This document shows, piece after piece, positions 4,860 through 20,650 of a stretch of DNA of 64,000 nt. The notes beneath the pieces are model-generated. The model made no database searches, had not been told where the DNA came from, and was given only the letters and a program-made list of their open reading frames with translations. Source of the stretch: Spirochaetia bacterium (lineage in GTDB: Bacteria > Spirochaetota > Spirochaetia > CADAEX01); NCBI GenBank assembly GCA_963662265.2, contig CAXXHA010000014.1, positions 1 to 64,000 on the forward strand, given 5' to 3'. Each line of letters begins with the position of its first letter. Position 1 is the first letter of the stretch. A program made the position numbers and the translations under genes.

Positions 4860-5028
4860 TAATTTCTCCTGTTAGCATTTCAATATAAGTAATTGGAATC
4901 AATACCCTTTTACCAATTCTAATTGAAGGGACATCACCATTTTTTGTATGCCTATAAAGAGTTATTTCAGCTACAGAAAGAATCTTTGATGCTTCTTTTA
5001 CAGTAAATAATTTTTTTTCTGTTATCAT
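4846..5028 (-). CDS. Excisionase/AlpA-like HTH_17 DNA-binding protein
   Basis: LFTVKEASKILSVAEITLYR...GDVPSIRIGKRVLIP; GGAGG RBS. Confidence 0.85.
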   Translation of the reverse strand: MITEKKLFTVKEASKILSVAEITLYRHTKNGDVPSIRIGKRVLIPITYIEMLTGEINAKK

Positions 5029-5110
5029 TTGGTTTCCTCCTAATTATTACCGCTTAAATATTTCTTAAATAACTACAGTTTTTATGATTAAGGAAATATA
5101 TACACGACTT

Positions 5111-5215: not shown

Positions 5216-5677
5216 ATGTTCTATAATGAGGATATGTCAAGATTTTGGGATAATACTCTAAAAATTATGCAAAATAAAAATATCTCACAAGTTAATTTAG
5301 CTAATGCAATAGGGAAACAAAAAACAACAATAAATACTTGGATAAAAAATGATAGAATTCCTTCAGCTGATTATGCGATTAAAATTGCTGATTTTCTTAA
5401 TACTGACTTAAACTATCTGGTAACTGATAAGCACCAAGAAGATGAAATTCAAGAAATCAATATTTTAAAAAAAAATTGGAATACAAACAAAGATCTTTCT
5501 TTAGCAGTAAAGAATCTTTTAAAGCTTGATTACAATAGCCTTTTAATGGTTAATGGATATATTCAAGGTAAATTAAAAGATGCAGATGATCATTTGAAAA
5601 CATATATTTCAGATAATTCTTATAATTCTAATCTATTAGCTGCTGAAAATAATAAAGATTTATATGGTAAAAAATAA
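5216..5677 (+). CDS. XRE-family repressor (CI-like; start may be ATG 5234)
   Basis: ISQVNLANAIGKQKTTINTWIKNDRIPS...KIADFLNTDLNYLV HTH; divergent from xis/rep operon. Confidence 0.85.
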   Translation: MFYNEDMSRFWDNTLKIMQNKNISQVNLANAIGKQKTTINTWIKNDRIPSADYAIKIADFLNTDLNYLVTDKHQEDEIQEINILKKNWNTNKDLSLAVKNLLKLDYNSLLMVNGYIQGKLKDADDHLKTYISDNSYNSNLLAAENNKDLYGKK

Positions 5678-5970: not shown

Positions 5971-6585
5971 TCAGCCAAAGACTAGTTTTTCTGATTTATA
6001 AAATGTATAGCCTTCGTAGTGGTAGCTTGCATCGATACCTTTCATAAAAATATCTATGTCATTGATCCGTTCTGTGAGAGCTGTTTGTAATAAATATTTG
6101 ATTTCAATATCTTTCACAGGGCTTCTTTCCATGGCTTGTAGATAATCATTTTTATCAACATTGCTCCAATCGACAACCTGTTTCAATTCAGTTTTCAGAA
6201 TAAGATCAAGCCATATTCTCATGGAACGACCGTTGCCCTCTCTGAAAGGGTGAGCAACATTCATTTCGACATACTTTTCAACAATCTCGTCAAATGTCGT
6301 TTGTGGCATAGCATCAATATTTTTTAGTGATGCATTGATGTACATAATCGGGATAAAGCGGAATGAACCCTTTGAAATATTCACAGATCTGATCTGTCCA
6401 GCGAAGGGATATATTTCATCAAAAAGGTATTTGTGAATTTCAGAAATAGTCGTAAAACCTCCAGCTTCAAAACTATTTATAAAACCGCTTTTAAAAAGCT
6501 CTATAGCCTTTGTTTTGCTAATTTTTTCCTCTGCCTTTGCGAGCTGGACAGGATCAGCTATACCAAGAATATTTTCAAGAATCAT
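5971..6585 (-). CDS. fic: Fic-domain adenylyltransferase, class III (C-terminal inhibitory helix)
   Basis: Canonical HPFREGNGR motif and C-terminal SYHYEG matching (S/T)xxxE(G/N). Confidence 0.9.
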   Translation of the reverse strand: MILENILGIADPVQLAKAEEKISKTKAIELFKSGFINSFEAGGFTTISEIHKYLFDEIYPFAGQIRSVNISKGSFRFIPIMYINASLKNIDAMPQTTFDEIVEKYVEMNVAHPFREGNGRSMRIWLDLILKTELKQVVDWSNVDKNDYLQAMERSPVKDIEIKYLLQTALTERINDIDIFMKGIDASYHYEGYTFYKSEKLVFG

Positions 6586-8830: not shown

Positions 8831-10156
8831 TTATTCCTCAAATGCTTCTTTGAGAACTGTCTGCATTAGAAGAGCTGCTTCCTGCTGAGATTTAGTTGAT
8901 TGGACTTCCAGTTGATCAACAAGAATAAGAGCCTTTTTTATTCTCTCTACAGCTTTACAAGCTTCTTCATAGGGAGGTAAATAGAACTCTATGTCTCTGA
9001 TTGTACCCATTGATAGACTGGGTTGGGCTGTTGCTTTGATATGCTTAAAGAGTTCTTTCTGCCCCCTTGGTGACAAAAGAAAGTAGTTTAAGTACAAAAG
9101 GTTTATATAATCAAAGGCAAATGGATGACACTCAATCTTTGCGACATTAGGTGCAAGGTGCCATCTTTCGTTTTCATTGAAAAAGGCGACATCTCCAATA
9201 CCAGCTCCGATAAATGTAACAAGAAGAGCTTCTTTGGTTAAGGCACATCTTTCAAGCTGATATGATGTTTCACTATCTATATAAAGCAGATTTGTTTTAT
9301 CAATATCTATAGGTCGCACATTCTGTGCTCGAATTACAGGTATGTCACCAGTTTCAGAAAGATTAAAGTATTTAGTGTACTCAAATCCTGCTAATTTAGT
9401 TACGAATAAAACATCATCAATTTTAACCTTTTGCCAAGAAGGGGGAATTTCAAAATCATCAGGTAATGATTTTTGATTCTTGATTTTCTGAGCTTTTCTG
9501 ATCATCTTCTCTTTTACCAGACGCTCTTTTTCTGCTTTGATTCGGACCAGCAACTTTGATGCTGGTTCTATATCGTGATTCTCTTCACGCCACTTGGCAG
9601 TCAGTTTTCCAGAAATAGCATCCTGAAGGATTTGCTGCCGGAGTTTTTTCAGAACTATTTGCTGGAGTGAGATTTCGGAAGAGAGACTCCCTGTATATTT
9701 TTTCGTTTTCGTAAACAGACTAACCCATTCAAGTTGTTGCTCTGGTGACATTAGAGGAAACTCTACATTTTCAATTGCTTTTACTGACAGAGTTACATTT
9801 GCCATTCCTTTCATTTGAGAAACGAGTAGTTGTTCTTTGTAGATATCAAGGTAGTGATAAAGGAAGTTGGCATTTACTACTGATTGGTCTTCTGGTGTAA
9901 CTACTGCTAAGATAGAACCAACAGAAAATTTACCATCCTGATAATGAATTCTTTTTAGACTTGCGTGCCCGTGTCCTGTTGAAGAAACAACAGGTATAAT
10001 TACAGAAGGTTTATCAAAGTGATATTCATTATGCGAAAGTCTTTCTTCAGCAGTAGTCACAAGGGGGTAGTTCCCCTCTACTGCCTTTTTAATCCCAATT
10101 TTACCTTTGACCACTTTACAATAGTCACCGATTCTAACCATCATTATTGAGGACAT
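8831..10156 (-). CDS. hsdS: Type I RM specificity subunit
   Basis: Two TRDs with conserved helices LRQQILQDAISGKL and LLMQTVLKEAF; abuts hsdM. Confidence 0.92.
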   Translation of the reverse strand: MSSIMMVRIGDYCKVVKGKIGIKKAVEGNYPLVTTAEERLSHNEYHFDKPSVIIPVVSSTGHGHASLKRIHYQDGKFSVGSILAVVTPEDQSVVNANFLYHYLDIYKEQLLVSQMKGMANVTLSVKAIENVEFPLMSPEQQLEWVSLFTKTKKYTGSLSSEISLQQIVLKKLRQQILQDAISGKLTAKWREENHDIEPASKLLVRIKAEKERLVKEKMIRKAQKIKNQKSLPDDFEIPPSWQKVKIDDVLFVTKLAGFEYTKYFNLSETGDIPVIRAQNVRPIDIDKTNLLYIDSETSYQLERCALTKEALLVTFIGAGIGDVAFFNENERWHLAPNVAKIECHPFAFDYINLLYLNYFLLSPRGQKELFKHIKATAQPSLSMGTIRDIEFYLPPYEEACKAVERIKKALILVDQLEVQSTKSQQEAALLMQTVLKEAFEE

Positions 10157-11578
10157 TTACAATAGCTCCTCTTTCAATTTGGATAGAAGCTCATCGCTTT
10201 TCTGAAATGAGTTATGAAGCAAATTTAGTAATTCCGCAGAGCTATGTTCAAGCTCCTCTTCCTCTTTATTAGGATTCTTTATATCCAGATCCCAGCCACG
10301 TCCTACAATCGTATCAATTGATACCTTCCAAGCAAGTTCTGACTCTTCGCGGTTGTTCCACCATTCCTTTATAGGATTGAACTCGTCAATTCTGATTGGC
10401 TTTGTTTTACTATATGATTTCTGACCTTCAGGTAGTTTGTGTTCGTAGTACCAAATCTCTTTGGTCGGTTCTCCTTTGGTAAAGAAAAGCAGATTGGTTG
10501 CTACTGTTGCATAAGGAGAGAATACTGAATTGGGTAGTCGGATTATGGTGTGTAGATTACAATCGGTTAACCATTTCTCACGGATTCGCTGTTTTACACC
10601 TTCCCCAGTCAGTGAACCATCAGGAAGAACGATAGCAGCTCTTCCCCCTTGTTTTAGAAGATGAACCATTAAGATTAAGAAGAGATCAGCTGATTCTTTT
10701 GTTCTAAAGTTTTGAGGGAAATTCCCTTCATTCCCATTTGCGACAACACCACCAAATGGAGGATTCGCAAGGATAGCATCGACTCTATCCCGTTCTCTAT
10801 ATTCGTTATATGGTTTAGAAAGAGTATCATCAAATGTTAGATTAGGTATTTCTATATCATGGAGTATCAGATTTGTTGTTGCAAGGAGATATGGAAGAGG
10901 TTTATATTCCCATCCAACTACATTATTCTGAATTATTTCACGATCTTTAGGTGTTTTTACCTGTTTTTTTAAATGTTCGATAGCACATGTGAGAAATCCT
11001 CCAGTACCACAAGCAGGATCAAGTAACTTCTCTCCTAACTGAATATCCATAATATCACTCATAAACTGTGTTACAGCCCTGGGAGTATAAAACTCTCCGG
11101 ATTTCCCAGCACTTTGAAGCTCTTTAAGCATCCCTTCATAAATATCACCAAAATGATGTCTATCTTCTGATATGTTAAAATCAATTTCATTAAATTTGTT
11201 TAGAACTTTACGAAGACAAATTCCTGATTTCATATAGTTGTGGTTTCCTTCAAACACTTCTCTTAGAATAAGTGCTCTTTGGTTCCCTGTTACATCTATA
11301 TCACGAAGTCCTGGAAAAAGTTTATTATCTACAAAATTAAGAAGTTCTTCTCCTGTCATACCTTCATCATTTCCTGCCCAATTATTCCAGTGGTATTCAT
11401 CAGGAAGAGAAGATGTGTAATTTTCTTCCATCATCTCAAGTTCATCTTCTTTATCTGAGAATATTTTTAAGAAGATCATCCATCCAAGCTGTTCAATACG
11501 CTGGGCATCTCCATTTAGCCCTGTATCTTCCCACATAATTTGTCGGATAGATTTCATCCATCCTGAAAAGTTGACCAT
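10157..11578 (-). CDS. hsdM: Type I RM N6-adenine methyltransferase
   Basis: GEFYTPR, DPACGTGGFL, NPPF motifs. Confidence 0.95.
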   Translation of the reverse strand: MVNFSGWMKSIRQIMWEDTGLNGDAQRIEQLGWMIFLKIFSDKEDELEMMEENYTSSLPDEYHWNNWAGNDEGMTGEELLNFVDNKLFPGLRDIDVTGNQRALILREVFEGNHNYMKSGICLRKVLNKFNEIDFNISEDRHHFGDIYEGMLKELQSAGKSGEFYTPRAVTQFMSDIMDIQLGEKLLDPACGTGGFLTCAIEHLKKQVKTPKDREIIQNNVVGWEYKPLPYLLATTNLILHDIEIPNLTFDDTLSKPYNEYRERDRVDAILANPPFGGVVANGNEGNFPQNFRTKESADLFLILMVHLLKQGGRAAIVLPDGSLTGEGVKQRIREKWLTDCNLHTIIRLPNSVFSPYATVATNLLFFTKGEPTKEIWYYEHKLPEGQKSYSKTKPIRIDEFNPIKEWWNNREESELAWKVSIDTIVGRGWDLDIKNPNKEEEELEHSSAELLNLLHNSFQKSDELLSKLKEELL

Positions 11579-14032
11579 TTAATTTGCTTCCTTATATAAT
11601 TCCTGTTCAAGTTCTCGAACTGCTTCCAGGTAATTGTATTTATTTTTAAAACTTTTGTTAATTATTTCCATTGGAGATCCAAACTCATTGAAAGGGTGAA
11701 TTTTTAACACTTTCATATCTTCAATTGCTCGTATATCCTCATCAGCATACTTATCAAGTAGAGCTTCTAATACTGAACGAGCAGAATCTCCATATTTAGT
11801 GAAGTAGTTTCTCTTTTTTACGTTTTCAGCTCTTTCTCTTCTCGTTAGAGGAGGCATATCATAGGCTGTATGACAGATTATATCAAATAAGTCACATTCT
11901 CTTCCAACAGCATTTAATAATTCCTCAACAAGAACACCTTTATCCTCTAATTCCAGAATTATAGCTTCTTTTTTTTCTGCTTCATTCCACTTATTAAGAA
12001 AATCATTCAAATCTCTATAATTTCTGGTTATTTGTTCTTTTGTATAATCCTTCAAACTTACTGTAATTGGCTTTCCATCACTATCAAAATACATATTTCT
12101 TTCATTTAGAATTGAAACTTCAACACCGTTTACATAGATTTTTTCACGAGGTTCTCCTGTGGTATCGTCATCATCTGGAGTACCATCAGGTTCCGGGAAT
12201 TCTATTTCTTCTCCTGTCACTTCATCAATAATTGGCTCATCATTTTCTGTTTCTTCATCTTCAATATCTCCAAGATCATCATCTTCTCCAGGGTGATAGA
12301 TTGAAACAGGATCTCCATCAAAGTCAGGATCTGCAAAAAGGTCTGTTACATTTCTAAAATCAAGTATTGTAAAATGGGTTTTTCCATATTCTTCATCAAT
12401 ACGAGTTCCTCTTCCTATAATTTGCTTAAACTCTGTCATTGACTTAATATTGCTATCAAGAACTATAAGTTTACAGGTTTTTGCATCTACTCCAGTTGTC
12501 ATAAGTTTACTTGTAGTTGCAATAACTGGATAAGGTTCTTCTGGATTTATAAAGTTATCAAGTTCTCTTTTACCTTCTTCATCATCACCAGTAATTTTCA
12601 TTATATATTTATAATTATCTTTGACCAAATCTGCATTTTGATTAGAGAGTTTTGTTCGCATTCCATTTGCATGTTCAATATCGACACAGAAGACAATTGT
12701 TTTAGAAAATCTGTCAGTACCCTTGAGAAACTCAGTAATCTTTTGAGATACCAATTCTCTTCTTTCATCAAAGACAATATTCGTATCAAAATCTTTACGA
12801 TTATAAATTCTATCTTCAACAGGATTACCATTTTTATCAAGTGTTCCTTTTGGAGGTCGCCATCCTTCAAGATCCACATTAAGACCAACACGGACTACTC
12901 GGTAAGGTGCAAGAAATCCATCACTTATACCCTGTTTGAGAGAGTATGTATAAACTGGATCTCCAAAATAATCGATATTTGAAACATCTTTTGTTTCTTT
13001 TGGTGTTGCGGTAAGACCAATATGAGTTGCAGATGAGAAATATCTTAGTATTTCTCTCCATGCACTATCTTCTGCTGCACTTCCTCGATGACACTCATCT
13101 ATGACAATAAGATCAAAGAAGTCTGGTGAAAAATCTTTATATGCATCTTCTACTTCACCACTATTAGTTAATCCTTGATATAAACCTAAGAAGACTTCAT
13201 ATGCTTTATCTGAGCTGTCAATTCCTCTTTTATTATTTGATACAAGCTCATCAGAACCATCTGCATTATTTACAATTTTCTTTTTAATAATTGTCATGCT
13301 CTCTTTGAAGTGTTTGAAATCGCCTCTTCGTGTTTGATCTATGAGAGCTGTTCTATCTGCAAGGAAAAGTATTCTTTTCTTAGTTCCACTTTTCCATAAT
13401 CTGTGGATTATTTGAAAAGCGGTATAAGTTTTTCCAGTCCCAGTAGCCATAACAAGTAAAATACGGTTTTGTCCTTTTGCGATTGCTTCAATTGCTCTGT
13501 TTATTGCATTTTGCTGATAGTATCGTGGTGTCCTACCAGATCCATCCAAGAAATAATCCTGTTCAACTACTTTCCTTTGTTCAGGAGTTGTAATTCCCTT
13601 GTAATGGCAGTATTTTTCCCATAATTCGTCAGGATTAGGAAAATTTTCTAGATTAAGTTCTTCTTCAATTTTCTCATTAGAAGTTTTGTCATGAAAAAGA
13701 AATCCATCACCATTTGATGAAAATACAAATGGTATATCAAGGATTTCAGAGTATTCAAGAGCTTGCTGCATTCCAGCTCCGAGAGCATGTTTATTATCTT
13801 TTGCTTCAATAATTGCTATAGGAAGATTTGTTTTATAATATAGAATGTAATCAGCTCTTTTTCTTTTTCCTCTCATTGACATGTTGCCACGAACATATAT
13901 ACGTCCATCAGTAAAAGAGACTTCTTCTCTTACCTGTTTTTGGATGTTCCACCCGGATTTTTGAAGGGCAGGTGTAATAAACTTTGTACAGATATCTCGT
14001 TCAGATAATTCTTTTTTACTTATTGTTGTCAT
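11579..14032 (-). CDS. hsdR: Type I RM restriction subunit (EcoAI/EcoEI-like)
   Basis: ADY..IEAK nuclease motif, MATGTGKT, DECHRG, TATP, QIIGRGTR helicase motifs. Confidence 0.95.
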   Translation of the reverse strand: MTTISKKELSERDICTKFITPALQKSGWNIQKQVREEVSFTDGRIYVRGNMSMRGKRKRADYILYYKTNLPIAIIEAKDNKHALGAGMQQALEYSEILDIPFVFSSNGDGFLFHDKTSNEKIEEELNLENFPNPDELWEKYCHYKGITTPEQRKVVEQDYFLDGSGRTPRYYQQNAINRAIEAIAKGQNRILLVMATGTGKTYTAFQIIHRLWKSGTKKRILFLADRTALIDQTRRGDFKHFKESMTIIKKKIVNNADGSDELVSNNKRGIDSSDKAYEVFLGLYQGLTNSGEVEDAYKDFSPDFFDLIVIDECHRGSAAEDSAWREILRYFSSATHIGLTATPKETKDVSNIDYFGDPVYTYSLKQGISDGFLAPYRVVRVGLNVDLEGWRPPKGTLDKNGNPVEDRIYNRKDFDTNIVFDERRELVSQKITEFLKGTDRFSKTIVFCVDIEHANGMRTKLSNQNADLVKDNYKYIMKITGDDEEGKRELDNFINPEEPYPVIATTSKLMTTGVDAKTCKLIVLDSNIKSMTEFKQIIGRGTRIDEEYGKTHFTILDFRNVTDLFADPDFDGDPVSIYHPGEDDDLGDIEDEETENDEPIIDEVTGEEIEFPEPDGTPDDDDTTGEPREKIYVNGVEVSILNERNMYFDSDGKPITVSLKDYTKEQITRNYRDLNDFLNKWNEAEKKEAIILELEDKGVLVEELLNAVGRECDLFDIICHTAYDMPPLTRRERAENVKKRNYFTKYGDSARSVLEALLDKYADEDIRAIEDMKVLKIHPFNEFGSPMEIINKSFKNKYNYLEAVRELEQELYKEAN

Positions 14033-14341
14033 AATGAGTCTCCATTTTCACTGAAATGTACTTTTGTTCATTAAGAGTATATCAGGTAACTGATATTAAT
14101 TCATTTAATTTTGTGGTATATAATTATGAGATTTGAATGTGGAAGAATTTCGTAATTCAAGGAGTTATTTCTTTCTTGAATAGAATAGCGAAAAATTACC
14201 ATCTTACAAGATTTCATAGTGTGTGCCAGGACTCAAAAAGATTAAATACATGACTTTTTGCTTAATTTAGGCGATAATCAGTAAAGGATTATGTGAGATT
14301 TCATGCATAATATCATTATTTTTACCCTTTGGAGTATCATT

Positions 14342-14650
14342 TTGGATAAATTTTGGAAATCTGCATTAGCAGTCGGTGGAGTTAGTGCAATTGGAGCATT
14401 TATATTTTTAGGTTTATATAAAGAATGGCTCAAACTTGCGATTTTCAACGAACTGAGCGGTGATCAGACTTATGTATTAATGATCATTTTCCTTGTGCTT
14501 ACATTTTGCAGTTTGATAGCTTTTATATTCGCTTTCATAAAATCGAAGCAAGATCCAAAGCCTTCGATTGAACAAAACATTTCGGGCAAAGGTATCGGAG
14601 TTATTAGTACTGGTGACTCAGCGAAGATTAAAATCAACAAGAAGAAATAA
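14342..14650 (+). CDS. Small 2-TM membrane protein with C-terminal motif shared with downstream LmuA-like protein (putative effector)
   Basis: Two hydrophobic segments (SALAVGGVSAIGAFIFLGLY; YVLMIIFLVLTFCSLIAFIFAFI); GGAG at 14331-14334 favours TTG 14342 over ATG 14303; tail SIEQNISGKGIGVISTGDSAKIKIN. Confidence 0.8.
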   Translation: MDKFWKSALAVGGVSAIGAFIFLGLYKEWLKLAIFNELSGDQTYVLMIIFLVLTFCSLIAFIFAFIKSKQDPKPSIEQNISGKGIGVISTGDSAKIKINKKK

Positions 14651-14655
14651 AGAAT

Positions 14656-15246
14656 ATGGCAGATGGAATAAAACAGGATTTAAGTGATGAAAGTATTGGT
14701 GCTATCAGCACTGGTGATTATAGTCCAATAACAATTAATGTAACCAATAATAAATCTGAAATTGATAGCTTGCTTAAACCCCTTTTAATAGAAATGGTAG
14801 ATAGTGTAAAAACTTCATATCGTAACCGAGCAACAGAACTTCCTCCAGATATTGAAGAAAAAATCGACTATAACAGAGTAAAAGTATTTAAGGATGATCT
14901 TCGTGATGCGATAAATTATGTTATTATCATCGATGAAATGATTGAGAATCTGAACCATGAGGATGAAGATGCCGCCGATTCAATTCTTTGGAGTATTAAT
15001 CAACGTTATAGAGACATTAAAAAAGAGTTATTTCTTGAACATAAAATAGACCCCTCAGATCATAAACAAGTTATTAAATGTATAAATTCTCATGCTGATA
15101 TAATTATCAACGCTGTAAAAGATTCAATTGAAAGTGACATTCCTTCAGTTGAAGGAAAGAAGATTGAAATCGTGCGTTTCTGTATTTTACTAATTGTTTG
15201 TTATGGCTTCATTACATGCAATATTCTGGAGCGACCAATTTCATGA
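14656..15246 (+). CDS. ABC-3C/Lamassu LmuA-like protein: short N-terminal motif plus CTD, no catalytic effector domain
   Basis: PPDIEEKIDYNRV and LIVCYGFITCNILERP resemble ABC-3C CTDs; first gene of a CTD-MC-ABC triad. Confidence 0.8.
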   Translation: MADGIKQDLSDESIGAISTGDYSPITINVTNNKSEIDSLLKPLLIEMVDSVKTSYRNRATELPPDIEEKIDYNRVKVFKDDLRDAINYVIIIDEMIENLNHEDEDAADSILWSINQRYRDIKKELFLEHKIDPSDHKQVIKCINSHADIIINAVKDSIESDIPSVEGKKIEIVRFCILLIVCYGFITCNILERPIS

Positions 15247-15470
15247 TAAAACCAACATTAAACAATATATCAGGTTCTCTTTACTGTGTAGGTGCATTTG
15301 TTCTTTCTGTGTTGAATGAAAAAGACAATATTTCTTTGGAAGAGCTATATGAGCTGTATAAGGAAAGGCATGGGTACATCTCATTGAATGTATTGCAGTT
15401 GGCAATTACATGGTTATATGTAATTGATTCCTGTTATTTGGCTGAGGATGGGTTAATAAAATGCTCTTAG
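15243..15470 (+). CDS. ABC-3C middle component (LmuC-like)
   Basis: 75 aa MIKPT...SLYCVGAFVL...LEELY...LAITWLYVID; ATGA overlap with upstream gene and overlap with ATPase. Confidence 0.8.
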   Translation: MIKPTLNNISGSLYCVGAFVLSVLNEKDNISLEELYELYKERHGYISLNVLQLAITWLYVIDSCYLAEDGLIKCS

Positions 15471-17158
15471 ATCGTTTAGTCGTACTCCATAACGGTGTAT
15501 CACTTAGGGAAATTACATTCCATGAAAATCTTACAATTATTACAAGTCGGGAGTTAGAAGGAAACAAGATTGGGAAAAGTACTGTCTTGAGGGTTATCAA
15601 TTTTTGTTTAGGATCAGATGGAAAGTCTATATGGTTAGATCCTATAAAAAAAGAGGAAAATGTTGAAGTAAAGTCGTTTGTTCTTACTGAAAATGTTGAT
15701 TTCATTCTATTTCTGAAAAGAGGCAAAGAAAGAATCGAATTAAAACGTTCTTTTGTTATTAGTGAAACGAAAAATGGACCACGTATTAAGCGTCAAGGGT
15801 GGATAAATGGGGAACCATTTCATGGCAATAAAAAATACACAACACATTTGAGTGAATTGATAGGCCATCTATCAGATAAGCCTTCTTATCGACAGTTAAA
15901 GAACCGAGTAATAAAAATAGATAATGGTGAAGAGTATAATTCCCTAAAATATTTAAATTTTGGAACGTCTGATGATGTTTATAGGCTTATTTATTCATCT
16001 CTTTTTGATTTTTCTGGTATTAGTAAAGTAAGATCAGAAATTGATATCAAAGCTGAGATTGAATCTTGCAAAGACCGTAGAAATGCAATACTGGACGGGC
16101 AAAAATATATAGATTACAAAAAAAAGCTTGATGAAATTGATCTAGCTCTTGCAGAATTATACGATGCTGAAAGTAAATTTGACATAAAGAACCCTCATTT
16201 ACGAGAGATGGAAGCACTAAAGATAATTAGAGGTGAGATTGTTCAGGAAAGTAATAAGATTTCGGCGATTGATATAAAACTTGACTATAATCATAGGTCA
16301 ATAGAACGATATAAAAATCAAAAAAGTGATCTTGATGTCTCTTTAGTTGAAAATATGTACCAAGAAGCGAAAAGCATTATACCTGGTCTACAAAAAAGTC
16401 TTGAAGATGTCATTAGCTTTTACAATAGCTTTCAAGATAATAAAATCAATTATCTACTAAAATTGCAGAAGGACATTGAATCTGAGAGGACTGTAATACA
16501 AGCCTCTTTAGAATCAAAGTTAGACACCGAAAAGGGATTATTTAAAACTCTTAGTGATCAAGGATATCTTACTGATTTTATTGTCTTGGAAAAAGAGATT
16601 CAGAGTAAAAAGGAAGAACGAGGTAAGATCCTATATGTAATAAATGAAGTCCAATATATCAATGGTGAAGTGAAAAGATTAGAAGGCGAATTAGAAAGTG
16701 TTCTATCCTCAATAAGTGAAAATAAAGATGATTTTTCAGATAATGTTGCATTATTCAATACATATTTTGAAGAGTTTTCTAAATCAATTTTTAAGGATTA
16801 TACAAATAGTCTTGGGTATGATGTGGATGAAAGTAATGACATAACATTCTATATTAAGAATGGAGAGAAAAATACTGGTGAAGGAAATCCGAGAGCAGAA
16901 TCTATGATATTTGATATTGCATTTGTCAAATATCTTATGGAGAAAGGGAAAAAGTTCTTCTACTTTTCCATTCAAGATAGTCTTGAAGCCATTGATGAAG
17001 AAAAACTGAAAACCATTTTTAATAAAGTGATTAAACACAATATTCAAGTCGTAATCAGTATACTCAGAGATAAAATATCAGATGCTCTTGACGATGAATT
17101 AAAGGACCATATCAAATTAGAGTTGAGTCCAGATAGTAAATTCTTCAAGTTACCTTAA
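15461..17158 (+). CDS. SMC/Rad50-like ABC ATPase (DUF2326-type, short LmuB-like)
   Basis: Walker A-like GNKIGKST, long coiled coil, signature-like TGEG and Walker B-like FSIQDS; 565 aa. Confidence 0.85.
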   Translation: MLLDRLVVLHNGVSLREITFHENLTIITSRELEGNKIGKSTVLRVINFCLGSDGKSIWLDPIKKEENVEVKSFVLTENVDFILFLKRGKERIELKRSFVISETKNGPRIKRQGWINGEPFHGNKKYTTHLSELIGHLSDKPSYRQLKNRVIKIDNGEEYNSLKYLNFGTSDDVYRLIYSSLFDFSGISKVRSEIDIKAEIESCKDRRNAILDGQKYIDYKKKLDEIDLALAELYDAESKFDIKNPHLREMEALKIIRGEIVQESNKISAIDIKLDYNHRSIERYKNQKSDLDVSLVENMYQEAKSIIPGLQKSLEDVISFYNSFQDNKINYLLKLQKDIESERTVIQASLESKLDTEKGLFKTLSDQGYLTDFIVLEKEIQSKKEERGKILYVINEVQYINGEVKRLEGELESVLSSISENKDDFSDNVALFNTYFEEFSKSIFKDYTNSLGYDVDESNDITFYIKNGEKNTGEGNPRAESMIFDIAFVKYLMEKGKKFFYFSIQDSLEAIDEEKLKTIFNKVIKHNIQVVISILRDKISDALDDELKDHIKLELSPDSKFFKLP

Positions 17159-17961
17159 TTCTGGTTCTACCGAGAGTGTAGAATAGCGAAAGATTTCCGC
17201 ATTCAATTTATACGGGGATTTCTGCTGTGCCTACCATTATAGACAACAATATCTTATTTTAATGGATACATAACAGGAAAAAACTACATAATCCTATTTA
17301 TGTAGTATAACGGTTCGAGTCCATATTTTTTACTGTGGAAAACTATCGGAACCTCTAAATGTAAGTGGGTGAATCTGGGAGTAAGGTTATGCTTCAGTTA
17401 TTTGTAATATTTATTGAAAAATTCTTAGTAAAATAAGAAAAAGGGAGTGATTTTCTTTTATTATTTTTTATCAGTAATATCATTACTATGAAGATACATA
17501 TCCCTTAATTCAAAGAAATCATTACTTCTGTCATAGTCATTTCGATCAAACAATCCAATTCATCTTAATTCTTTTGAATACCCCATTATACTTTTGTATT
17601 AATAATTCTAGATTATTTTCAACTATTATTCGTAATAATTTTTCATATCTGCTGCACATTATCATTACTTTTTTGTTTCAGTTGTCAACACCGCTCTAAA
17701 ACTGCAGTTTAGCACCGTCGCTCACACAGTTTAATAAATGTATGATTCATAATAAGGTTTCAATAAGCCCTTCCGAAAGATCATATTAATTTTTTTCTTA
17801 CGTTATGCAAAGGATGGTCAGCAAGTATGGTCAAAAATTAGATATTTTAGATAAAAACTGCTAAAATCAGCTATAATGACTTTGACACGAAAATTGTTAA
17901 AGTCTTATAATACAATAAAATAGATCATTAAAGATCATATTGGATAAAGTGTCGGGGCGTT

Positions 17962-17981
17962 TTCAAGTCCCTTCGCCACTA
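17962..17981 (+). repeat. tRNA 3'-end fragment (att site of the integrated element)
   Basis: TTCAAGT T-loop + CCCTT T-stem half + CGCCACT acceptor half + A, with no tRNA 5' half upstream. Confidence 0.7.
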
Positions 17982-17984
17982 TAG

Positions 17985-18010
17985 ACCCGGTCAATAGGCC
18001 GGGTTTTTTT
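17985..18010 (+). terminator. Intrinsic terminator after att/tRNA fragment
   Basis: ACCCGGTC-AATA-GGCCGGGT followed by T-run. Confidence 0.85.
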
Positions 18011-18019
18011 GTGTCTGAA

Positions 18020-18426
18020 TTATTTGTTCCTTCTTATTACTTCTCTGAATAAAAATGGTTGTATTTCAGGATAAGTTAAATTATCAGGAAGTTGATTAAA
18101 AGAACTTACTTCAGATATTTTAAAATCCAGCTTACCTGAATAGCTTTTGATTTCGGCGAAGAAAAGTCTTCCATAACTTGTTTTATTATCTACAGAGACT
18201 GAATAGTCACATATTTCCACCAGTTTAAAATCCTTTGCTCCTGTTTCTTCAACCAGCTCTCTTTTCGCAGCTTCAAATGAGGATTCACCTTCATATGACC
18301 GCCCGGTATTTTTCTTATATCTCTGTTTTTATGTTTAAAAAAAACATATCCATTTTTATCTTCAGATATAATAACAGAATATTTTAAAGAAGCTTGATGT
18401 TCTAATTCGTGAAATTTTATGACCAC
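18020..18426 (-). pseudogene. NUDIX hydrolase, frameshifted
   Basis: IPGGH in one frame and EGESSFEAAKRELVEETG (Nudix box) in another; shift near 18295. Confidence 0.75.
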
Positions 18427-18532
18427 TGAAACCTTCCATAGTAAAAAAAGTCTTTATTAGTTAATCCCATATTACTCAGGTGTAGGGTAAAGTTAATGGG
18501 AAGATATATTTGTAGCAAACAGATCTTTATTT

Positions 18533-18958
18533 TCAGTTTGCAAATCTTTTATGAATTAGATGGTCCTTTTTTAATTCAAGCAGATCCCATAGATTCCCGT
18601 AAAGGTCTTTAAAAACTGCGACTGTCCCATAATCAGCTTCTTTGGGTTGTCTTACAAATTCTATACCTTTTGAAATCATGTCATTGTAATCTCGCCAGAA
18701 ATCATCTGTATTGAGAAAAAGGAAAACTCTTCCTCCTGATTGTGAGCCAATATAATCTTCCTGCTCAGGTTTTGATGCTTTTGCAAGCAGTATAGTTGTT
18801 CCCCTGGAATTGGGCGGAGAAATTACAACCCATCTCTTGTTTTGTTCAGGTTGATAGGTGTCGTCTATAAGAGTGAAATGCAGCTTATTTGTGTAAAAAT
18901 CAATTGCTTCATCGTAATCCCACACAACTAATGCAATATGAACTATATCTTGTTTCAA
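18533..18958 (-). CDS. VOC/glyoxalase-family protein
   Basis: HIALVV.DYDEAIDFYT.KL.F and YGTVAVFKDLYGNLWDL. Confidence 0.9.
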   Translation of the reverse strand: MKQDIVHIALVVWDYDEAIDFYTNKLHFTLIDDTYQPEQNKRWVVISPPNSRGTTILLAKASKPEQEDYIGSQSGGRVFLFLNTDDFWRDYNDMISKGIEFVRQPKEADYGTVAVFKDLYGNLWDLLELKKDHLIHKRFAN

Positions 18959-19389
18959 ATTTTGTTTCCTTTGTTTTCACATATAGAATGATTTATTATA
19001 CACGATTCAATGTCAAAACAATGATAAAAAAGATTGTTTGTTAGAGTGATCTTTCTCTTTAAAATAGTCTATCAGTAAATTATCATGCCGAAATGAAAAG
19101 AGAGGTCAGTATAAAAAATAATTAGAAAAAGTTATAAAAATTTATACGAAATACATATAGGAGCAGAGGATATTTACATATGAAGGAAGTATTGAATAGC
19201 TGAAAAATCTGGTAGCAGATGAGGTTCTTGATATCTTGGCTTTAAACGATCTTGAAAAAATGCTTGAAGTAAAAGATTAGTTATTGAAAGGATTATTGAT
19301 CACTATGAACTCTCAGAAAAACAGGTTTGTAAATTATTAAGGTTCAAATATTTTGTGTATTGTATTGAGAATAAGACTATTATTTTTTC

Positions 19390-19418
19390 TTGACAGATTA
19401 TTTGATAGGGCCTATCAT
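19390..19418 (+). promoter_or_regulatory. Sigma70-type promoter of the glycerophosphodiester operon
   Basis: TTGACA-17 bp-TATCAT. Confidence 0.7.
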
Positions 19419-19430
19419 TAATTATATTTT

Positions 19431-19492
19431 TAGGCATGTGTATAAGTGAGCCAGGAAAATAGATTGTTATCTAGTTTCCTGGCTTTTTTTTT
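19431..19492 (+). promoter_or_regulatory. 5' leader terminator (candidate GlpP antitermination target)
   Basis: AGCCAGGAAA/TTTCCTGGCT stem plus T-run between promoter and first gene; glpP homologue at end of cluster. Confidence 0.7.
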
Positions 19493-19552
19493 GCACTGGT
19501 AAAATTACAAATAATTAGTCATATGATTGATTAAAAATTAAAGGGGGATTCT

Positions 19553-20650
19553 ATGAAAAAACATTTCATAGTGCTTATGTGTTTAGTGTTAATCTCATCA
19601 ACATTTGTATTTGCTGGAGGGAAAAAAGAATCAAGCAAAGCCACTCAAGATAATGGCGTGCTTCGTCTGTTAACCTGGTCAGGTTATGCATTACCAGAGC
19701 AGATTGAAAAGTTTGAGGAAGAGACTGGAATCAAAGTTGAAGTTATTAAAAGTAATAATGAGGAAATGATAGCTAAACTCAGGGCTACAAGAGGTGGTGG
19801 TTTTGATCTGGCACAACCAAGCCAGGATAGGATAATCGGTGTTCAAAAACAATATGATGTTTATCAGCCAATAGATTTCTCGAAAGTTAATGTGGATCAA
19901 ATTGATTCTGTGTTACTCGAAGCAGTAAAGAAAAATACGAAAATAGAAGATGAATATTATGGACTTCCACATATATGGGGAACTTCAGGTCTTATTGTAA
20001 ATAAAAAATATTGTAATGATGTTGAAGATTATTCCGATTTATTTAATCCGAAATATAAAGGAAGAATTTCATATCGGCTGGTCCGTGCTACAGTTTGTGG
20101 GGTCAGCTTTTCACTTGGCAATGAACATTTTAAAGCCTATAACGATTTAGATAAGTATCAGACAATTCTTGATCAGGTCCAAGATAAGCTAGTTGATGGA
20201 AAAGATCTTGTCCAAAATTATTGGGCCAATGGAGATTCTTTATTACAGTCAATGAAAACTGAAGAAGTATGGCTTGCAATGGCATGGGATCAGGCTGGCT
20301 GGAAACTACATGCGTTAAATCCAGATATTGATTTTATTCCTCCTAAAAGTGGTGCAATGGCTTGGATAGATACATTTGCGATACCTTCAAAATCAAAAAA
20401 TGTTGAAGCGGCTTATAGATGGATTAATTTTGCATTGGAACCAGAAAATGCAGCTTATTTTACAAATCACGAAACATATGCAACAGCATCAAAAGGTGCA
20501 GAAAAGTTTTATACAGAAGATATAAAAGCAAATTTTGCCCGAGGTTATAATGATGAAGCAAAGAAAAATTTTAACTGGTATCCCGCAGCACCTCCGGGAA
20601 TAGAAGAAATGGAAGGGAAAATGCTTGATAAAGTAAGGGCTTCTAAATAA
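19553..20650 (+). CDS. ABC substrate-binding protein, PotD/PotF-like
   Basis: LLTWSGY, FEEETGIKV, SNNEEMIAKL, P.SGAMAWIDTFAIP, AAYRWINF; spirochaete-type FAGGKKE signal. Confidence 0.85.
   Translation: MKKHFIVLMCLVLISSTFVFAGGKKESSKATQDNGVLRLLTWSGYALPEQIEKFEEETGIKVEVIKSNNEEMIAKLRATRGGGFDLAQPSQDRIIGVQKQYDVYQPIDFSKVNVDQIDSVLLEAVKKNTKIEDEYYGLPHIWGTSGLIVNKKYCNDVEDYSDLFNPKYKGRISYRLVRATVCGVSFSLGNEHFKAYNDLDKYQTILDQVQDKLVDGKDLVQNYWANGDSLLQSMKTEEVWLAMAWDQAGWKLHALNPDIDFIPPKSGAMAWIDTFAIPSKSKNVEAAYRWINFALEPENAAYFTNHETYATASKGAEKFYTEDIKANFARGYNDEAKKNFNWYPAAPPGIEEMEGKMLDKVRASK

Follow-up and report, generated by a model that had tools for sequence, protein, structure and literature searches.

A terminal motif shared by a small membrane protein and a CTD-only LmuA-position protein in a four-gene Lamassu-type operon

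Lamassu systems are among the commonest bacterial defence families, and their known effectors are enzymes fused to an adaptor domain. The type II Lamassu/ABC-3C (ABC-three component) systems, i.e. LmuA-LmuC-LmuB, DdmABC of Vibrio cholerae and YydB-C-D of Bacillus subtilis, are made of overlapping genes in the order effector-side protein, small middle component (MC) and SMC-like ATPase. According to a structural preprint on Lamassu, the LmuA monomer is sequestered in an inactive state on the LmuB dimer until DNA ends are sensed, whereupon it comes free and tetramerises via its C-terminal domain (CTD); its authors suggest that release and tetramerisation of LmuA may hold for all effector types (10.1101/2025.06.23.660979). 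The published effector lists consulted name nuclease, SIR2, hydrolase, protease, phosphoesterase and monooxygenase effectors, and no membrane protein. We analysed an operon that has the gene order of these systems and carries in addition a gene for a small membrane protein. It is situated at positions 14342-17158 (+ strand) of a window of 64,000 nt, by which we mean the whole stretch of DNA examined, taken from a Spirochaetia bacterium (assembly GCA_963662265.2, contig CAXXHA010000014.1, positions 1 to 64,000). Our best reading is that the operon represents a subtype of Lamassu whose effector is a membrane protein with a gene of its own, coupled to the sensor complex by a motif present at the facing termini of two neighbouring proteins.

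All four open reading frames (ORFs) described in the initial annotation of this DNA were confirmed, with the same tight coupling. The first one encodes a protein with two transmembrane (2-TM) helices, the proposed effector (14342-14650, 102 aa from a TTG start, or 14303-14650, 115 aa from an ATG start, in which case the operon begins at 14303). After a gap of 5 nt comes the gene of a 196-aa protein at the LmuA position (14656-15246), composed of a head motif, a linker helix and a CTD10-like all-helical domain, and called CTD protein below. Its end shares an ATGA overlap with the gene of the 75-aa middle component at the LmuC position (15243-15470, Pfam MC6, PF20293), and a 10-nt overlap leads to the gene of the 565-aa SMC-like ABC ATPase at the LmuB position (15461-17158, DUF2326), in which the nucleotide-binding motifs are intact. 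The TTG at 14342 is placed 7 nt downstream of a GGAG sequence, and is favoured as the start because the three nearest database homologues of the membrane protein are each 102 aa long. Compared to the type II Lamassu/ABC-3C systems, the LmuA-position protein carries a motif of ~24 residues instead of an enzyme domain, and the three genes are invariably joined by one for a membrane protein.

The family of the operon was assigned from its core genes. In Pfam searches, the MC protein matched MC6 at 48.5 bits (cut-off 27.2), and the C-terminal part of the ATPase matched DUF2326 at 44.4 bits (cut-off 28.7). Of the control genomes, B. subtilis also gave an MC6 match. In an alignment of 12 homologues of the ATPase, residues G38, K39, T41, G473, G475, D485, D506 and Q529 are invariant; G38, K39 and T41 belong to Walker A, G473 and G475 to a signature-like motif, and D506 to Walker B. 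As its nucleotide-binding residues are invariant in these homologues, the ATPase looks functional. PADLOC, which the initial annotation had put forward as a check, recognised the ATPase but gave no match for the other three proteins. Its best match was the candidate system PDC-M68B (2.6e-17); the match to the LmuB model PDLC00254 (E 4.3e-7) was marginal, as it covered residues 17-55 only, i.e. 39 residues around Walker A. Against PHROGs, the ATPase matched phrog_5467, an unannotated phage family, over its full length (1.8e-30), and NCBIfam yielded nothing further for the four proteins. These searches support the view, taken from the start, that the operon is an ABC-3C/Lamassu-type system, the label Lamassu resting on the Pfam ABC-3C families. 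The ATPase and the middle component of ABC-3C are present, and the N-terminal effector domain fused to the CTD is absent.

This absence is clear from the structure predicted for the LmuA-position protein, for which too few residues had been noted ahead of the CTD to form a catalytic domain. In an AlphaFold2 (AF2) model built with 75 homologues (mean predicted local distance difference test score, pLDDT, of 88), residues 1-28 have no secondary structure (pLDDT 54-61) and residues 29-186 are all-helical. Because the first 28 residues are coil and the helices begin at residue 29, there is no room for a catalytic domain, and searches of Pfam, NCBIfam, PADLOC and PHROGs revealed no enzyme domain, nor any domain besides the CTD. 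The sole meaningful fold match in the PDB, obtained with Foldseek, was chain 9a6c_B (probability 1.00, TM-score 0.54 on the query), which is the 481-aa YydB chain in an integrative YydD-YydB model of Bacillus subtilis; the fold of the CTD in this respect resembles that of a known ABC-3C protein. Among the Foldseek matches listed, none besides 9a6c_B had E < 1 and none was a solved Lamassu LmuA chain. A profile search of the PDB sequences gave nothing under E 0.2.

Relatives of the CTD protein were collected with HMMER from 1.84 billion cluster representatives (E ≤ 0.001). This yielded 93 representatives, of which 82 were short (160-230 aa), 5 were shorter fragments, 4 were 337-387 aa long, and 2 were spurious repeat proteins. 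The 4 long relatives carry other, enzyme-sized N-terminal regions on the same CTD, which means that the N-terminus of the CTD protein is the effector slot; one of the three such regions inspected resembles a trypsin-like protease, as judged by eye. In the 82 short proteins, residues 4-30 consist of G, N, S, T or Q to a median of 48%, versus 22% in the remainder of the sequence. On this sequence evidence we conclude that a short low-complexity peptide occupies the effector slot in most of the CTD family, and that the short form is a family and not a truncation. In the same search, a giant adhesin-like protein (P0020, 3655 aa), made of tandem repeats of ~95 residues, gave 23 matches to the head-motif region. 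It was rejected as a homologue, and its matches were read as compositional and beta-strand-like.

The product of the first gene had been described as a 2-TM protein, and we indeed detected two hydrophobic windows in it. Its AF2 model (pLDDT 69) contains helices at residues 2-30 and 40-69, followed by a coil tail, and the distribution of charges around the helices, as read from the alignment, places this tail in the cytoplasm. The four-gene order was observed in 7 of 7 loci from reference genomes (Parendozoicomonas, Moritella, Marinomonas, Oceanobacter, two Pseudomonas and Njordibacter), each with a 2-TM protein of 86-106 aa encoded directly upstream. This arrangement is not due to chance, since the order is the same in all 7 genome loci and recurs in metagenome loci. 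The 2-TM proteins occupying this position in other loci are homologous to each other, with a conserved loop between both helices. A second type of membrane protein, with a single TM helix and 57-83 aa, was found in three loci (L050, L051 and L053).

A survey of the gene neighbourhoods of CTD-only homologues, also proposed in the initial annotation, was performed on loci found with a 12-sequence alignment of CTD homologues. The set comprised 7 genome loci, 33 metagenome loci and 1 viral contig, i.e. 41 loci, plus the window; two scans of viral contigs contributed the one viral contig, and a scan of genome contigs with the ATPase alone gave no match. We scored the 34 loci in which the CTD gene was complete and preceded by an ORF of 45 aa or more. 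The 8 unscored loci were those in which the contig begins at the CTD gene (L042), the CTD gene is frameshifted (L049) or broken up under translation table 11 (L054, L055), the upstream gene is hidden by an over-extended ORF (L052) or cut by the contig end (L057), or the contig is too short (L056, L058). In 33 of the 34 scored loci, the upstream product contains at least one 19-residue window with a Kyte-Doolittle hydropathy of 1.6 or more, and in the 34th (L047) it is cut by the contig end. The spacing between the membrane and CTD genes ranged from -14 to +11 nt, bar one artefactual value of -98. A membrane gene upstream of the CTD-only gene is thus the rule among the loci surveyed. At about 2100-2900 of L054 and L055, a 51-aa single-TM ORF is followed by the CTD-like gene that is fragmented under table 11; these are either decayed copies or loci from an organism with another genetic code.

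An unbiased sample was provided by 401 genomes of the window's phylum, 17 of which had an MC6 match; they yielded 15 loci with an identifiable CTD protein. A strongly hydrophobic ORF was found directly upstream of 3 of the 3 short CTD proteins (162, 183 and 196 aa), with a maximum hydropathy of 2.4-3.0, compared to 0 of the 12 others, where the upstream maximum was 1.55 and the CTD was preceded by HNH-like and other N-terminal regions. The membrane gene therefore occurs strictly with the short CTD form. This form is rare in the genomes sampled, at 3 of 401 in the window's phylum and 1 of 401 in the phylum of the Moritella locus, counting the Moritella genome on which that sample is centred; the latter sample contained this genome and one HNH-fused relative.

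Two observations concern other MC6 operons of the window's phylum. In four loci (L002, L003, L006 and L007), the CTD protein of the MC6 operon has a longer N-terminal region, which is HNH-like in the first two and of another type in the last two, and a conserved, basic and non-hydrophobic protein of 73-77 aa, rather than a membrane protein, is encoded ahead of the operon. This protein may be a regulator or an additional component of that MC6 subtype. In L009 (528-1498), two ORFs of 189 and 110 aa are present at the LmuA position, which may be a CTD split from its N-terminal region, or a broken gene.

The most informative feature of the operon, absent from the initial annotation, is a paired motif at the facing ends of the first two proteins. 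The tail motif of the membrane protein (14567-14638, + strand) has 24 residues and ends 3 residues short of the C-terminus; its counterpart in the CTD protein, the head motif (14668-14739, + strand), spans residues 5-28. The two align without gaps, with 13 of the 24 residues identical and a score of 63. The composition of the motifs is 48-49% G/N/S/T/Q and 25-30% aliphatic residues, and those of the window are both coil in the AF2 models of the monomers (pLDDT of the tail, 51-58). A central glycine is the same and invariant in head and tail: G20 of the head in 12 homologues, and G91 of the tail (numbered on the 102-aa form) in 18 homologues, among which the membrane protein has just one other invariant residue. 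At the DNA level, positions 14698-14717 are 80% identical to positions 14597-14616 (20 nt). Since synonymous codon differences are found between the two DNA copies (two in this stretch), the likeness is held at the protein level, and is not the product of a fresh gene conversion. When the motif patterns were searched in the six frames of the whole genome (3.77 Mb), matches were confined to these two genes.

The same pairing was found in 33 of the 34 scored loci, where the tail of the upstream membrane protein matches the head of its own CTD protein with scores of 32-71, 6-15 residues being identical in alignments of 13-28. Between the end of the tail motif and the C-terminus lie 0-12 residues, and the start of the head motif falls between residues 4 and 15. 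At least three motif types exist among the loci, and within each locus the type is identical on both sides. The rule applies to both kinds of membrane proteins, i.e. the 2-TM proteins of ~100 aa and the 1-TM proteins of 57-83 aa. In four further loci (L012, L014, L052 and L057), which are outside all counts, a tail-head resemblance was seen by eye.

To measure co-variation, the 33 pairs were grouped into 12 clusters by the globular part of their CTD proteins, at a threshold of 60% identity. Cognate tails and heads had a mean score of 55.2, against 28.5 (standard deviation 12.3) for non-cognate ones, and 21.0 (standard deviation 4.4, maximum 45) for heads shuffled with their composition preserved. 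The cognate head ranked first for 7 of the 12 tails, and first or second for 11 of the 12; when the pairing was permuted 100,000 times, the observed sum was never attained. Independent drift after an old duplication predicts that cognate and non-cognate pairs are equally alike. This was not observed, and we conclude that tail and head evolve together. Together with the strict association described above (3 of 3 versus 0 of 12), the co-varying motif supports the proposal of the initial annotation that the upstream membrane protein is a separately encoded effector, killing by this protein being probable.

A comparable layout is known from systems with other sensors. In Bab/Agp of E. coli, two adjacent genes have a ~20-residue motif in common at the C-terminus of the effector and the N-terminus of the sensor, and this motif is required for the abortive infection that the system provides; the sensor is needed for the motif to assemble in infected cells, and assembly is lost with beta-breaker mutations (10.1101/2024.11.07.622273). 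The likeness of our operon to Bab/Agp (BASS11) lies in the adjacent collinear genes, in the positions of the motif at the C-terminus of the effector and the N-terminus on the sensor side, and in the small size of a membrane-acting effector (109 aa for Bab); it is a likeness of layout. The two systems differ in that Bab, a helical Bell-like domain, is soluble and moves to the cell periphery, while the window protein is an integral membrane protein with two TM helices, or one in other loci, and abortive infection, shown for Bab/Agp, is proposed for the window system. Bell/NLR pairs with BASS1-10 in filamentous bacteria, and fungal HET-S/NWD2, were found by local alignment of adjacent termini (10.1101/2020.01.06.895854). 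There too, the motifs of neighbouring genes sit at the C-terminus of the effector and the N-terminus of the receptor, and are detected in the same way. The Bell/NLR receptors are NB-ARC/NACHT NLRs, and their hosts mostly multicellular Actinobacteria and Cyanobacteria; the hosts in which the window-type family was found are Pseudomonas, Moritella, Marinomonas, Oceanobacter, Parendozoicomonas and Njordibacter, as well as the low-GC genome of the window. In terms of sequence, the operon thus has what characterises a BASS/FASS pair, namely adjacent collinear genes, terminal motifs, and a cognate likeness above the non-cognate one, but not the combination of an NLR/STAND or TGP receptor with a Bell/HeLo-type or enzymatic effector.

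Small TM proteins also serve as effectors in CBASS, Pycsar and type III CRISPR systems, where they are thought to kill by oligomerising in the inner membrane on activation, after nucleotide second messengers bind to the sensor domain of the effector. The window membrane protein differs from them by having no ligand-binding domain, the tail motif being its only cytoplasmic feature.

A mechanism can be drawn from these precedents. At rest, as in solved Lamassu complexes, one CTD-only protein would be held as a monomer on the ATPase dimer, along with the MC6 protein. Once foreign DNA is sensed, the CTD protein would be released and would oligomerise via its CTD, again as in solved Lamassu structures. 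If NWD2/HET-S and Agp/Bab are a guide, oligomerisation would bring the unstructured head motifs together in an amyloid-like fold of stacked beta structure, and this head nucleus would capture or template the identical motif on the cytoplasmic tails of the membrane proteins. The clustered 2-TM hairpins (1-TM in other lineages) would then breach the inner membrane, and the infected cell would die before phage release. We lean towards this reading as a whole, i.e. a Lamassu-type cassette in which the effector slot of LmuA has been reduced to a peptide of ~24 residues, and killing has moved to a membrane protein ending with the same peptide, the two being coupled in an amyloid-like manner. Its parts do not stand equally well. 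That the two proteins are partners through the motif is very likely, and the membrane protein is probably the killer; templating in the strict sense, for which the argument is by analogy, comes a little short of an even chance.

Several points weigh against this reading. Amyloid formation, toxicity and a defence role are predictions for this family. With a proposed effector that is integral to the membrane from the outset and an SMC-like complex as sensor, the analogy with NLR/STAND or TGP sensors and with soluble Bell/HeLo effectors, which relocate to the membrane, may fail in detail. The membrane protein matched no family in Pfam, NCBIfam, PADLOC or PHROG, and in particular no holin or pore protein, and its nearest Atlas cluster is unnamed. 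On the side of the CTD protein, the match of residues 58-192 to CTD10 (PF20275, 21.8 bits, E 3e-4) is under the cut-off of 28.1, although a database protein that is 93% identical carries PF20275 in its precomputed annotation. The loci were retrieved via the CTD protein, and the survey covers membrane genes beside such CTD genes. One of the 12 clusters, L018, pairs only weakly, with a cognate score of 32 and a rank of 5 among the heads. Finally, a plain one-to-one pairing of strands would give the same sequence signals.

This last point is the basis of the main rival explanation, in which the CTD protein tethers or restrains the membrane protein by an ordinary stoichiometric beta-strand pairing, without templating, and activation, by releasing or rearranging the pair, frees a toxic membrane protein or moves the complex. 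Matched and co-varying motifs, adjacent genes and a cytoplasmic tail fit it equally well, and the computed data do not separate a heterodimeric beta-zipper from a cross-beta stack; a structure prediction for the complex of CTD protein and membrane protein scored 0.00 but was run without controls, and weighs neither way. Other features are less in keeping with it. The layout is that of known amyloid signalling motifs (extreme termini, ~20-25 residues, nearly half G/N/S/T/Q, a central invariant Gly), both motifs are predicted to be unstructured, and sequences so nearly identical are better suited to homotypic stacking than to a complementary interface. Moreover, CTD-driven oligomerisation upon activation, as reported for Lamassu, fits nucleation. 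We consider strand pairing without templating unlikely, while giving it real weight.

Instead of binding each other, head and tail could both bind one site elsewhere, perhaps on MC6 or on the ATPase, the tail competing with the head as a molecular mimic. Similar sequences could indeed reflect one shared receptor site, co-variation would follow if this site co-evolves, and the MC6 and ATPase genes are always present. However, no candidate pocket was identified, and the motif type changes completely between lineages, whereas the ATPase motifs and the MC6 family are conserved, which makes a conserved receptor site less likely. We regard this explanation as improbable.

Slightly less probable still is that the membrane protein is no more than an anchor, keeping the sensor complex at the site of phage DNA entry in the inner membrane, and that the effector is elsewhere or absent. 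Small membrane proteins can be anchors, and this one resembles no toxin family known to the four libraries cited above. Yet such a system would be left without an effector, while related operons always carry one on the CTD protein (12 of the 15 loci of the unbiased sample, with HNH-like and other N-terminal regions). The membrane gene is, moreover, present exactly where the enzyme domain is missing, and the genome contains no third copy of the motif. That the likeness of the motifs is functionless, due to chance, to composition or to a duplication remnant at a gene split, is very improbable: both segments are low-complexity and G/N/S/T-rich, and beta-strand-like sequence of this kind can match spuriously, as the tandem-repeat adhesin did, but shuffled heads stayed below the cognate mean and permuted pairings below the observed sum, the pairing survives complete changes of motif type and of membrane-protein type, and the synonymous codon differences place the similarity at the protein level.

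We looked for earlier descriptions of such an arrangement. In the literature searched, no paper combined ABC-3C with amyloid; publications combining Lamassu and amyloid were on unrelated subjects, judged by title and abstract, and a mention in Krishnan et al. 2020 is possible. In the Bab/Agp preprint (10.1101/2024.11.07.622273), the words ABC, Lamassu and SMC do not occur. Among publications on DUF2326, PDC-M68, YydD or ABC-three component, as judged from their listing, no membrane-linked form was found.

The operon is a mobile cassette of ~3 kb. Two metagenome contigs (L026 and L027) carry a copy of it that is 91.5% identical, and their homology to the window is confined to positions 14183-17237. 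An imperfect direct repeat of 20 nt brackets the genes, with a left copy at 14181-14200 and a right copy at 17179-17198 that are identical at 18 of 20 positions; a degenerate version of the repeat flanks the cassette copy of L027, at about 2020-2050 and 5020-5050. Based on the fact that the homology is limited to this block, that the flanks differ and that repeats bracket it, we conclude that the four genes move as one unit. No recombinase gene was seen adjoining the cassette. Upstream of the genes, a promoter-like site (14250-14278, + strand) agrees with the consensus at 9 of 12 positions, such sites being no commoner than chance in the region; the stretch around it (14222-14290) is conserved, and almost invariant between the window and L027. 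A scan of the region for promoters and terminators gave nothing above chance, and an Rfam search of 13900-19600 gave no match.

On its left side, the cassette adjoins a complete and divergent type I restriction-modification system (8831-14032, - strand), made of HsdS (8831-10156), HsdM (10157-11578) and HsdR (11579-14032, with an EcoEI_R_C domain). Further on are genes for a Fic-domain protein (5971-6585) and for a CI-like helix-turn-helix (HTH) repressor (5216-5677). The surroundings look like a defence island or a mobile island, and the restriction-modification neighbour is a setting in common with Lamassu/ABC-3C systems. On the other side of the cassette (18020-18426, - strand), two short consecutive ORFs of 66 and 78 aa overlap by 31 nt, and may be the halves of one frameshifted gene; the 78-aa ORF, which the search covered, had no Pfam match at E ≤ 0.001.

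What the operon means for the Lamassu family is that the effector slot can be reduced to a short peptide, serving as the address by which a membrane protein encoded by another gene is recruited. The resulting system is very small, with a membrane protein of ~100 aa and with tail and head motifs of ~24 residues each, and the differences between the cognate pairs of different lineages make its specificity open to direct tests by motif swapping. As a tentative generalisation, somewhat less likely than not to hold, SMC-like Lamassu/ABC-3C sensors may signal by prion-like templating, in which a minimal LmuA, oligomerising through its CTD, nucleates an amyloid-type fold in its N-terminal motif of 24 residues, and this fold spreads to the tails and turns the membrane protein into a pore. 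If this is true, one or more new families must be added to the bacterial amyloid signalling motifs. They would be the first to be found with sensors other than NLR and TGP proteins and the first acting on a resident membrane protein, and they are present in ordinary unicellular Gammaproteobacteria. Since the pairs co-vary, they would then serve as private address labels that insulate co-resident systems from each other. True templating would also extend Bab/Agp, the sole bacterial case shown experimentally, to an unrelated class of sensors, and would suggest that motifs of this kind connect sensors with killers as a plug-and-socket device of general use.

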